Assembly (NCBI GenBank): GCA_964016885.1
Contig: OZ024749.1
Span: forward strand, 49,042,001 to 49,106,000
DNA: 64,000 bases
DNA from: Eledone cirrhosa
Taxonomy: Eukaryota
Direction: 5' to 3'
Shown: positions 1,501 through 46,964 of the stretch, one piece after another
How positions within the stretch are numbered: position 1 is the stretch's first letter
Layout: every line of letters begins with the position of its first letter
Program-made: the position numbers and the translations under genes
Notes under the pieces: model-generated
Seen by the model: the letters and a program-made list of their open reading frames with translations, nothing else
What the model was told of the DNA's origin: nothing
Databases searched by the model: none

Positions 1501-4500
1501 GTATTTTTTTTTTTTTAAATATATTTTTATGTGTATTTGGTGTATACTTTCGTATGCGTGCGGGTACAATTGTTCCTCTTCTTGCTGTTTGGAAGAATTT
1601 TTCTTTGATATTAAATATTCGCAACTGCGTGGAATTTACTCTTGTCAATTAGTTTTCTGGCTTTCTATCCTGATGATATCAGATGATATCATAGGGCATT
1701 TTTATTTCCCTCACCTGTATCTTTATATAACTATATCTTACGTTGCCATATTTACTACGTTTTCAATTTCGGTACTCTAAACCAAACCAAAATCCGCTGT
1801 TTTTCCTACTTGCCCTAGTTACGGATTTCATTTGGAATAACATGTTCACAGCTATGTGTATGAGGAAATTTCCTTAGCCAATTTGCATCAGTAGCAGCTT
1901 GCAAAACGTTAATATTTTGATGAATTTTCATTTAACTAATCTACATTCCATGTTAGGTTCTACCTAACAGATAATCATCTCTCCATTGAATGTCTTTCCA
2001 TATTAAATTGTTAAATATATATATTTGTTAAATATTGAGTATTGTCAATTCGTACCTGATAAATACTGAGTAAGTCGTTGTTCAAATATATTCAAGTTAC
2101 ATCAATAGCGTCGCTCTCTAGTTAGTGTATGAAATACTATGTAATCGTGGTGATGTTCATATTTTGAATGTTAGGTTAAGAGTATAATTTCGAGGACATT
2201 TGATAGCTATTGATTAAGAAAGCTGAAGATGCTGATGAATTGTGATTGTAACGACCATGCTGATGACATTAAGGATGGTGACGATGATGGTGTAATTATG
2301 ATGGAGTGATGATGACGATGATGGTCATGATAATTATGATGATGACGCTTCTGATGCTGAACAAATGACGAAGTATCACAAAAGTTCTTCAATGCACCAT
2401 CATTCCACTCATATAATATGTTTATTAGAGTTTAAGTAAGAAATCAATACGGAGTGATGTTTCTTTGAATATGTTATACATGCAACAACATAGTGGATAT
2501 ATTTCAACGCCAAACAATCAATCGGCTCTTTCTTCTTAGTGTATTTCATTGCGACCAAATTAATACTACGGATTTTGGAATTAGGTTAAGCTCCATCTGA
2601 TAGCTTATGCAATTTAATGATTAAACAGAATCCTGGAAGTCTGTTGAAGAATTTAATTATGGAGTGCCGTCCAATTAATTACATTCAAGGCTGAGCATAA
2701 TTGAGTTTCATTTTGTAATGTTATGTCGTGTTTTTATTATTTTTAAATTCAGGATAGTGACACAAGTCTAATTTTCATTTTCCTAATCATTTATGAATCA
2801 ATTTTTCTCATAAATTACTTTCTTATCAAATGAATTATCCTTTTTTTAAATGCATATTTTTACGGATGTAAAACATGAGAGGGTGTCGCCCAGATTGTTG
2901 CTGGGAGCTTTGAAGAAATACATGAAGTAAACCAATTAAAGGGATCGATTTAGCTCACCAAACTTTCCCTACATTCACAGGATTTGCTCAAAAATACAAT
3001 CAGTCAGGTCGCAAATAACCCATACATGTAGGAAAGGAATCTGTGAACACGTAATAAGTAATGACATCAACATAGAGAGTAAATACAGTACCTTTATTAT
3101 ACTTTCTATAATCCTATAGAGGAAAACTTTGTCTTTCATGCAGCCGAAGCCTATCATAAAATATATCAGTTCGAATTAGTGAACTATTGGTTATCGTTAA
3201 ATTATGAGAAAGAAAATGTGTGGTGTGTTATGTGTTCCAGCTCGGTAAAATCTGAGTCCGATCCTCTGACAAAGCAAATTTTCCGGTGTCGATAAAATAA
3301 AGCGCAGTTCAATATAATTCCTATATCTCTCAGGTTTATTAAGTTCTGCTGCAACACAATTAGAATGGACAATGTTGTCACAATTGAGTGCGTGATATAT
3401 GTCAACTTATATTCTGATATATATTTTGTTTACATTATCTGAAATAACGAATTTCCCTTATGTTGACTATAAATCCGAAGAAAAAATAAAGTTTGTGCAT
3501 TCAATGCCTTACTTAAAAGCAACCGAATATAAATGGGTTACCACTTTTAAGTTATTCATTTGGGTATGCCTCGAATCTAGAATGGTATGACGACTGGATT
3601 TCAATGGACAAAATTGATTTTGAAATTGCAATCAGAATGTATAAGAAGTGTCTTATTTAGAGTCGATATAAAACACCACTCCTGGAAACGATTGCGCTCC
3701 ACCAGGTAACAAAATGCGTTAAGAACACTGTATGTCAATGCGGTGCCCCTAATGTTCATTTCGAGTTCACAACAGTCAGATGAAGAAATATGTTAAAACA
3801 TTTGTGTCGCATTTTTCCGTATCTATTATATCAAATATTGCAGATGCTTCATCTGTTTCTATATAGAAAATATAGAATTGCAGCATTCTTCGAAGGAAAT
3901 GTGATATTACAGTAAATAATTCCTTCAACCGATTGTCTATAAATCTAGCCTCGTGTTGTGCCATCAAGATTTAGCATAAGAAACAAGTTAAAAATAGACA
4001 ACAAGTGTTTGCGTTTCCAGAATATATTCTTCTATAATGGTAGATAAAGAATAATGCTGTAGGTAGAAATTAAGCAAAGTAATTATCACGTTTTTGCAGA
4101 CTTGCAATGCTAACTTTACTACTGCAATTACCAATTACAACTTCGATCTCAGGACAATATCAGCTTTATACATTACAATAAACAATATATCTATCATTAA
4201 TACATATGTAACACCACCATCAGTGGTAACTATACTAAGGTGAAAAGCCTCCCACATTCCAAATTATCAATGATGCTCCCTGCATTTACAGAGATTTTAA
4301 ATAAACATGAAGAAGATAAATATTGCGAGTCAAAAAATACCTCGAATATATTTTTTGGCTAAAAGACAGGCAAATACGATTAAATAATACAAAAATCAGG
4401 AAGCACAGAATTGTTCACTGACATTTCTCAAATTCCAACGAAATTAGATGAATTACAAACATACATACGAACAAAAGAAAGAAAATGCGGCAATATTTAC

Positions 4501-21750: not shown

Positions 21751-21753
<3 letters not shown>

Positions 21754-22188
21754 TTTTCGGTACCCCGGCCGATTAACTCACTTGATATGCAAATTACGCT
21801 GCTCAGACGTTAATATGCATAAGGAAAGTATTTACTTTCAGATGTTCAATCATATGACAGGAAGGTATACGTTGCTGACGATAGCTAATAAGCTTGAAAC
21901 TAGTACAGCGTTCATTTTTCAGTGTTGAACAAATGAGCAACGATGGTTGCTAGACACTGTACGGCTTAATTCGGGATGTTTGTTTACAAACACACCGGTA
22001 ATTATAATAAATGTTCGGTGAATCCATACGTACATATATATATATATATATATATGTGCATGTATGTATTTATATATACATACTACTGTACGTCTGTATA
22101 CATATATGTATGTACGTATATATACTTATATTTAAGTAACAGCCGAACTAAGAGTGAGAAATCAAATTTCGTTACATTTTTTCAGTTT
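21751..22188 (+). mobile_element. Monomeric HHR element, family C, about 440 bp, between (TA)n tracts
   Basis: Runs from tcgttttcggta to ttcgttacattttttcagtt. It is colinear with the units at 45820-46945 and contains the HHR at 21870-21910. Confidence 0.85.
21870..21910 (+). ncRNA. Minimal type-I hammerhead ribozyme
   Basis: CGTTG-CTGACGA-t-AGCT-aata-AGCT-t-GAAA-CTAG-TA-CAGCG, with palindromic stem III and a GUA site. Confidence 0.88.
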
Positions 22189-38772: not shown

Positions 38773-39277
38773 ATACTTTGGGAGGGTCATGTTGCCAATA
38801 AGAAACACACGCACCAGTTGTAAACTTCAATTTATTATAATAAATTTATAAATTTAGGAATTTATAAATTTCTGGTTGGTTGGTTGGTTCCGCAACCAGA
38901 TAGTTGTTTATATATTGTCAAAGTTCTTTCGTCACACATTATGTGACCTCTTCAGTGACTGGGGATTATTTTCATTGTTTTTGTGCCTCTCCTTGTTCTG
39001 TCCTACGCCATTTTGTTTCTCAATGGCGTAGGACAGAACAAAGAAGAGGCATAAAAACAAAGAAAAGAATCCACAGTCACTGAAGAGGTCACATAATGTG
39101 TGACGAAAGAACTTTGACAATATATAAACAACTATCTGGTTGTGGATCCAACCAACCCACCAGAAATTTATAAATTGATTATAATAAATTGAAGGGTCAT
39201 CAACTGGTGCGTGTGTTTCTTATTGGCAACATGACCCTCCCAAAGTATAACAATATCGGTTTCAACACACGATTTCA
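38764..39277. mobile_element. Near-perfect 500-bp palindrome, family F-related, HHRs at 38917-38959 (-) and 39076-39118 (+)
   Basis: The centre is gtcctacgccatt-ttgtttctc-aatggcgtaggac. The HHR reads GTCA-CTGAAGA-g-GTCACA-taatg-TGTGAC-GAAA-GAAC-TT-TGAC. Both sides lie at or near (TA)n. Confidence 0.88.
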
Positions 39278-45627: not shown

Positions 45628-45872
45628 TAAAATAGCAGATTAAAGTTTAAGCAGAGAATTGCTGCTTTCACACTTAACGGGATCTTCTGAAACTAACAAA
45701 ATCAATCCGTGAACGCGGAAGTGAATATTTCAAAAAAAGTTGCAACCGGAGGAAGACGATACTTTGGTATCTTCAAATTTATTATTATTACTATATATAT
45801 ATTTATATATATATATATAAGTATGTATGTATACGTACATACATATATGTATACAGACGTACAGTAGCATGC

Positions 45873-45903
<31 letters not shown>

Positions 45904-46056
45904 CAGGTACACATATATATATATGCACGCATTAGTTTAGCGGACGCTTATTATAACGCCGCTTTGTTCGTTTGTCAACAAACTGAACAGCCTGAATTTA
46001 TGCCATACGGTGTTAAGGCAACCACGTCACCTTTTTGTTCAACACTGACACAGGAA

Positions 46057-46097
46057 CGATGTACTAGTTTCAAGCTTGTTAGCTATCATCAGCACCG
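46057..46097 (-). ncRNA. Minimal type-I hammerhead ribozyme
   Basis: Exact reverse complement of 46581-46621. Confidence 0.88.
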
Positions 46098-46334
46098 TTT
46101 ACCCATCTGCCAGATAGTTGAACGTTCGAAAGTATATACTTTCCTTATGAAAATTAACGGCTGAGCAGCCTAATTTGCATATTGAGTGAGTTAAATCGAT
46201 CAGGCATACCGAAAACGATAAGTTGAAAAAAAATGAAAACGAAATTTCATTTCTCACTCTTATCATGGCACTTACTTAAATGTAAGTATGTATGTATACG
46301 TACATACATATATGTATACAGACGTACAGTAGCA

Positions 46335-46402
<68 letters not shown>

Positions 46403-46580
46403 CAGATACACATATATATATGCACGCATTAGTTTAGCGGACGCTTATTATAACGCCGCTTTGTTCGTTTGTCAACAAACTGAACAGCCTGAATTTATGC
46501 CATACGGTGTTAAGGCAACCACGTCACCTTTTTGTTCAACACTGACACAAGAACGTTCAACTATCTGGCAGATGGGTAAA

Positions 46581-46621
46581 CGGTGCTGATGATAGCTAAC
46601 AAGCTTGAAACTAGTACATCG
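46581..46621 (+). ncRNA. Minimal type-I hammerhead ribozyme
   Basis: CGGTG-CTGATGA-t-AGCT-aaca-AGCT-t-GAAA-CTAG-TA-CATCG. Confidence 0.9.
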
Positions 46622-46772
46622 TTCCTGTGTCAGTCTTGAACAAAAAGGTGACGTGGTTGCCTTAACACCGTATGGCATAAATTCAGGCTGTTCAGTTTGT
46701 TGACAAACGAACAAAGCGGCGTTATAATAAGCATCCGCTAAACTAATGCGTGCATATATATATGTGTACCTG

Positions 46773-46828
<56 letters not shown>

Positions 46829-46964
46829 TGCTACTGTACGTCTGTATACATATATATATGTACGTATACATACATACTTACATTTAAGTAAGTGCCATAA
46901 TAAGAGTGAGAAATGAAATTTCGTTTTCATTTTTTTTCAACTTATATATATATATATATATCAA

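Follow-up and report, generated by a model that had tools for sequence, protein, structure and literature searches.

Metazoan retrozymes are documented as circular RNA, minor dimers in vitro included, and the circles have been proposed as templates of the Penelope-like elements (PLE) (PMC7229834). In the accessible part of their study, Li et al. link the retrozymes to pLTRs and favor local amplification, and only one of nine Xenopus retrozyme dimers was cleaved in vitro (10.64898/2026.07.22.740005). Dimeric cleavage of the PLE hammerheads is cited in PMC7761336. For the PLE themselves, the accessible texts explain the tail found at one end by endonuclease resolution (PMC8557442) and the head-to-head inversions by self-priming (PMC3846280). 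The anole Poseidon protein PAc, a predicted dimer, cuts and extends both strands in vitro. Its reverse transcription starts at two adjacent internal sites that set the tail, and ribozyme cleavage is not required in vitro, the uncut RNA being the main template, as far as the accessible text describes (PMC11167929). The insertions analyzed here bear on how the PLE come to build tandem and inverted insertions in which only one end has a tail, and on whether retrozyme circles truly undergo reverse transcription. Their tens of thousands of young ORF-free copies yield sharp predictions that can be counted: each strand should have one start site, each event one RNA, and dimer circles should leave ABAB arrays.

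The window, i.e., the whole stretch of 64,000 nucleotides of Eledone cirrhosa that was analyzed, contains a tandem-plus-inverted structure that is real and that we read as a young insertion of a non-coding hammerhead repeat of about 470 nt, a putative non-LTR retrozyme, in (TA)n. Two arms, facing outward in the hammerhead sense, are placed between a left (45786..45819) and a right (46943..46961) target tract of (TA)n, both read from the sequence and having no strand. Arm 1, of about 1.6 units, lies on the minus strand (45818..46555). Followed from 46555 to 45818, it starts 3 nt past the predicted cut, reads through site S2 (CAACT-TA-TCGTTTTCGG), passes one hammerhead and stops at ACTTA; this 3' end is site S1, at -221/-215 relative to the cut, and carries no tail. 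Arm 2, of about 0.8 unit, lies on the plus strand (46551..46944) and starts at -65, takes in one hammerhead and the internal TA hairpin and ends at CAACTTA, the site S2 at -156 from the cut, with a tail. The plus arm reaches about 59-65 nt beyond the 3' end of the minus arm, which the original prediction for this DNA overlooked; the stretch at its 3' end is listed separately (46881..46944, plus strand). The arms meet head-to-head at a 5-nt microhomology without strand, GAACG/CGTTC (46551..46555); of the 288 positions that they share, 4 differ. Both insertion ends, inspected for a target site duplication of more than 4 bp, are inside (TA)n. The reading frames of the locus are all short and mostly run across TA tracts (the longest has 152 codons, on the antisense strand), and the reading-frame search found no ORF with RT and GIY-YIG inside the locus.

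The surroundings hold other repeats. At 45628-45790 of the window, and also near 570-700 and 56209, there is another short repeat that ends in TAGTAATAATAATAAATTTGAAG beside (TA)n, and the retrozyme insertion sits in the TA tract of the copy at 45628-45790. A flanking repeat is perhaps reminiscent of cephalopod repeats. At 38890-39160 a different hammerhead-like repeat (CUGAAGA ... GAAAGAACUU) forms a head-to-head pair, and the same motif also adjoins GIY-YIG matches in loci L265 and L301.

The original prediction had taken TCGTTTTCGG as the start of the unit and the TA before it as the joint of the two unit ends. The sequence bears out that CAACT (46225-46221), TA (46220-46219) and TCGTTTTCGG (46218-46209) are contiguous on the minus strand. 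This supposed junction (46209..46225, minus strand) is S2, CAACTTA, read through into TCGTTTTCGG, and is internal to the repeating unit: CAACTTA is an internal site where insertions often end, and TCGTTTTCGG is what comes next in the unit. The proposed count of tandem junctions gave 2,107 exact genome-wide copies of the tail-TA-head sequence, which is ordinary internal sequence, and only 18 of (TA)5 joined to the supposed start. The monomer at 21751, cited for the unit ends, is a single-armed copy of the sister subfamily B (21751..22188, plus strand), 77% identical. It makes one full turn from S2 to S2, was truncated by chance at a TAT microhomology and is one of 18 genome-wide copies that start there.

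Each arm carries one minimal type I hammerhead motif. The motif of arm 1 occupies 46056..46098 on the minus strand, with the predicted cut between 46062 and 46061, and that of arm 2 occupies 46580..46622 on the plus strand, with the predicted cut between 46616 and 46617. The parts found at the locus are helix I (ACGGUG/CAUCGU), CUGAUGA, helix II, GAAA, a 1-bp helix III (C-UA-G) and GUA. In the 3.0 Gb of assembly searched, the exact 34-nt pattern of the minimal hammerhead has 23,085 matches, and its control has 0. From 93 stretches, 142 cut-to-cut units were obtained, about 420-580 nt long and typically of about 470 nt, the lengths being spread because the internal TA tract varies. Subfamily A includes the studied locus, subfamily B the 21751 copy, and family D is a more distant sister family. 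Hammerhead motifs with GUC or GUU number 11,837, mostly of family D among the matches listed. Loci L330 and L336-L355 (e.g., G000:C1:5738093-5752746) belong to family D, with a unit of 465 nt and a GUC or GUU hammerhead. The arrays of family D reach 31 units, to which an inverted arm is added, and the same two-site rule described below holds in them.

Helices I and II covary among families A, B and D, with changes on both sides of helix II, a constant core and the triplets GUA, GUC and GUU. Helix I occurs across the groups as ACGGUG/CAUCGU, ACGUUG/CAGCGU, ACGAUG/CAUCGU and AUAUUG/CAAUAU. This covariation around a constant core argues for a hammerhead kept by selection as a ribozyme fold, self-cleavage being a prediction. 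The free-energy fold of the hammerhead alone was no better than shuffles (z -1.13), and no Rfam match reached the gathering score anywhere in the window. Helix III has 1 bp with a UA loop, families A and B have U-U at the base of helix II, and the stable helix III with loop-loop contact of the canonical hammerhead in most invertebrate retrozymes was not found. The 1-bp helix III marks a variant and not an exclusion from the retrozymes, since Li 2026 counts minimal motifs and the axolotl HHR_Amex1 also has a helix III of 1 bp.

In other respects the family agrees with the retrozymes. Its tandem units are a few hundred bases long, and each contains a type I hammerhead; the family codes for no protein, has no LTR and has a GC content of 31-36%, under the 50% limit of the class. 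The predicted circular fold of all 6 units examined gave z between -5.1 and -12.7, each unit being compared with 25 shuffles; TA-rich palindromes account for part of this. The insertions also show the partial tandem, the inverted 5'-truncated copy and the tail at one end by which Penelope-mobilized sequences are recognized. Our verdict is that the family would comprise non-autonomous non-LTR retrozymes of Penelope type with a minimal PLE-type hammerhead, a previously undescribed member of a published class.

The 3' ends of the arms follow a rule. Three samples were drawn from the first matches listed, for the hammerhead (55 stretches), the junction and the 3'-proximal motif (34 new stretches); the alignments were chained into arms and the two-armed insertions were paired by script, some two-armed loci being left unpaired because one end failed the TA filter. 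In this set, 208 of 275 annotated arms or fragments terminate in (TA)n, the microsatellite target, and 200 of the 208 abutting ends are at S1 (about -215 from the cut) or at S2 (about -156). Both are UUA sites next to (TA)n, 59 nt apart. The 65 two-armed insertions that were paired comprise 60 with S1/S2, 2 with S1/S1, 1 with S2/S2 and 2 with an unresolved end, i.e., one S1 and one S2 end in 60 of 63 resolved pairs, or 59 of 62 without the duplicated locus L125. At L125 (G000:C1:19619812-19626818) the entire two-armed insertion is duplicated 2.6 kb apart, breakpoints included. In family D, where the 3' sites are 69-74 nt apart, there is one site per arm in 24 of 24 resolved pairs (30 pairs in total). 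The original prediction had named neither these two fixed sites nor any Penelope-type machinery.

We regard it as reasonably probable that both DNA ends are primed by a Penelope-like RT-endonuclease that uses a single continuous RNA as template, probably a circle formed by ligation. Priming at two sites and on two strands by PLE machinery is very likely; given such priming, it is quite likely that the template was circular. In the proposed sequence of events, read-through transcripts of tandem copies would self-cleave, likely as dimers, and would be ligated into monomer and sometimes dimer circles. The enzyme (RT/GIY-YIG, acting in trans, and with a dimeric form predicted for that of a related element) would cut both strands of (TA)n. 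Subsequently, one DNA end would prime at S1 and the other at S2, each reverse transcriptase would circuit the template for a variable number of turns, and the two cDNAs would be joined head-to-head via microhomology. Long arrays may change further by local duplication. A more specific version is advanced tentatively: a dimeric Penelope-type enzyme would load a single time on a small RNA circle of one or two units, use one fixed start site per DNA strand and roll round both sides, the A-to-G changes being gained in the RNA phase. If a dimeric enzyme does act on one circle, the one-end tail and the inverted-repeat architecture of the PLE would be explained, the animal ribozyme circles would be genuine retrotransposition templates, and the insertions would be their direct record.

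Among 216 arms with a 3' end at (TA)n, the 5' end of 136 falls in unique sequence; in the other 80 it falls in TA-rich sequence and is not placeable. The two copies in the window were left out of the count. The 136 placed ends are scattered over the unit. Only 2 are within -6..+8 of the cut, versus 6.3 expected, and the cut site is crossed 294 times against these 2 stops, so that the template appears to have been continuous across it. In the sample selected by the hammerhead, stops at the cut are under-represented by the way it was drawn; the 3'-motif sample, which has no such bias, gave 2 of 37 versus 1.7 expected, and family D gave 2 of 58 versus 2.0 expected. A joint of (TA)5 at the cut occurs 20 times genome-wide, similar to the 18 of (TA)5 with TCGTTTTCGG. 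The upstream partial copy of the studied locus does begin just past the cleavage site, at the inversion junction, as had been noted: it lies 3 nt after the predicted cut, at GAACG/CGTTC. The wider claim that truncation is tied to the GUA site did not hold, the truncation points being spread over the unit and at chance near the cut, and the breakpoint of this locus is a coincidence given these 2 ends in 136.

The units bear on which RNA was copied. The unit comparison used 85 subfamily A units out of 137 (30 failed parsing and the remainder are of subfamily B). Units diverge by 0.5% within arrays versus 2.4% between arrays, and in most arrays every unit carries the same variants peculiar to that array. 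For the arms, 29 pairs that share 120 positions or more were compared: within a locus they differ by 1.2% versus 3.4% to other loci and are closer to each other in 27 of the 29. Private variants were found in both arms in 10 cases, one of them at the studied locus, and in one arm only in 58, the latter a point against the favored reading. Among the 16 arrays examined, L134 (G000:C1:125825866-125833346) has the order L-S-L-S-L-S-L on both arms, over 49 columns and in phase from both 3' ends. The L-type signature has 8 occurrences in the genome, all in L134 and 4 per arm, and the array is a candidate product of a dimer circle. Since its arms hardly differ in length, a fold-back copy would still fit L134. 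L121, L153 and L143 have a period of 2 or 3 within single arms, and at L339 the 16 units across both arms are identical after the TA-tract lengths are collapsed. The clonal tandem units, the private variants shared by the arms, the lack of a stop at the ribozyme cut and the dimer-periodic array uphold the part of the original prediction that called for a continuous template, circular or concatemeric. Its own clues, the TA junction and the breakpoint near the cut, fell away.

The strongest alternative keeps the same two-site PLE priming and replaces the circle by a linear transcript that was read through a pre-existing tandem array and left uncut, the long or periodic arrays being copied or grown by unequal crossing-over. 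It is unlikely, in our estimate, with several observations on its side. The uncut RNA is the dominant template of the anole PLE in vitro, where cleavage is dispensable, which favors a linear concatemer and counts against the circle (PMC11167929, accessible text). Local amplification is proposed in the part of Li et al. 2026 that is accessible (10.64898/2026.07.22.740005). An uncut transcript also accounts for the absence of stops at the cut and for the block and period-5 patterns within single arms at L340, X336 and L135, which are best read as the apparent result of local duplication after insertion, against a purely rolling-circle origin. On the other hand, a haplotype specific to the array and fixed in all units of most arrays would demand a frequent bottleneck of one unit, and the dimer signature of L134 has no source elsewhere in the assembly. 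The lack of upstream traces of a linear source speaks against it as well: the 51 arms that abut unique DNA have no common source flank on their 5' side, one pair excepted whose similarity another repeat explains, and 7 PLE frames gave no match immediately 5' of these arms; nor do the 136 placed 5' ends show a pile-up that would mark a transcription start. Moreover, the hammerhead is maintained with compensatory changes.

A ribozyme-cut linear monomer, on which the reverse transcriptase repeatedly jumps from the 5' to the 3' end of one molecule, would yield clonal seamless multimers as a circle does and would require a working ribozyme, in line with the covarying hammerhead. It is improbable, since the jumps must succeed in more than 99% of the 294 passes and (TA)5 joints at the cut number only 20 genome-wide. 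An origin at the DNA level (a satellite or a Helitron-like rolling-circle DNA amplification) or an assembly artefact would suit tandem arrays of up to 31 units and is very improbable in view of the fixed and paired 3' ends with scattered 5' ends, the outward-facing arms, the point changes between arms, the thousands of loci and the strand-biased G excess in the internal TA tract. The fold-back of a singly primed cDNA on itself, as originally predicted, hardly deserves credence: most head-to-head joints do show short microhomologies or overlaps and the arm lengths permit it in 40 of 51 simple-joint pairs, but geometry excludes it in the other 11, the studied locus included, where the plus arm has a tail lacking in the last minus unit and the minus arm exceeds the length that a copy of the plus arm could have, and it leaves unexplained both the fixed S1/S2 pairing and the fact that either arm can be the longer one (24 vs 27), with uncorrelated arm lengths.

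If a Penelope-like enzyme primes on a continuous RNA, as we favor, it would have to be supplied by another element. The genome has many GIY-YIG copies as well as RT+GIY-YIG frames, some with hammerheads of the same type with a 1-bp helix III. Of 10,597 candidates 150 were scored, and none of the 50 GIY-YIG loci sampled among them shares the unit sequence; the autonomous partner is therefore one that we infer. Long RT and RT+GIY-YIG frames of several Penelope-like families, some above 800 codons, occur in L286, L287, L288, L289, L296, L298 and L300, and are candidates for the mobilizing enzyme. Two leads were discarded: a 21-nt match to the unit within an RT frame (E 0.08) was taken as chance, and a hairpin match downstream of the PLE ORF in L298 is a nested family D retrozyme insertion and not the partner.

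The internal TA tract has features of its own. In the subfamily A units of the window it occupies 45880-45900, 46338-46398 and 46776-46825. Across 82 loci, with one unit per locus, the interruptions on the sense strand are nearly all G (166 T-G-T vs 5 A-C-A), and 31 of 33 distinct interruption patterns have G; the interruptions are not independent because many are inherited. The flanking genomic TA tracts are balanced (120 vs 107). The G excess fits either editing (A-to-I) of the hairpin in the RNA or a selective preference of G-U pairs to A-C pairs. Among the array-fixed substitutions of the unique part, the excess of A-to-G was not significant (6 vs 3). A common stretch of at least 393 bases lies inside the internal TA tract of retrozymes at L115 (near 2400-2800) and L220 (near 2850-3240), which suggests another element that targets this tract.

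The class of the element and its architecture are already published; the near-strict S1/S2 pairing, the shared haplotype and the dimer phase were not found in the literature searched. The accessible PLE and retrozyme literature that was searched has no account of a rule of one site per arm. In L1 twin priming, both target strands prime on one RNA and an inversion results, the site of the second primer being variable and the two pieces non-overlapping. Here, in contrast, neither site varies, and the two arms are copies of one and the same sequence. The metazoan non-LTR retrozymes, in the accessible parts of PMC7229834 and 10.64898/2026.07.22.740005, are likewise non-coding tandems whose units measure a few hundred bases and contain one type I hammerhead each; they have a low GC content and a strongly self-paired predicted circle, range from monomers to long multimers and share their genome with PLE. 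They differ in the hammerhead, which is canonical in invertebrates and here of the minimal PLE type with a 1-bp helix III, in a unit of 420-550 nt; these parts contain no description of a pair of fixed priming sites, of two-armed insertions with inversion, of haplotypes common to both arms or of dimer-periodic arrays. The PLE, as far as the accessible texts of PMC8557442 and PMC3846280 describe them, share the partial tandems, the inverted 5'-truncated copy, the frequent tail at one end, the (TA)n targets and the microhomology at 5' joints. Unlike them, the present insertions have no ORF and their arms are multimers of one small unit; the tail measures 59-69 nt versus 30-40 bp in the PLE, which weighs against the favored reading, and its restriction to one end, frequent there, is near strict here (59/62; family D 24/24). 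The anole PAc resembles this system in its mode of priming, with two adjacent internal RT starts that define the tail, AT-rich targets and both strands cut and extended. Its accessible text reports no difference in start site between the strands and does not ask about pairing within one event (PMC11167929). The start site of PAc is described there as not homologous to its target, whereas in the present family UUA stands at the end of both sites, beside (TA)n.
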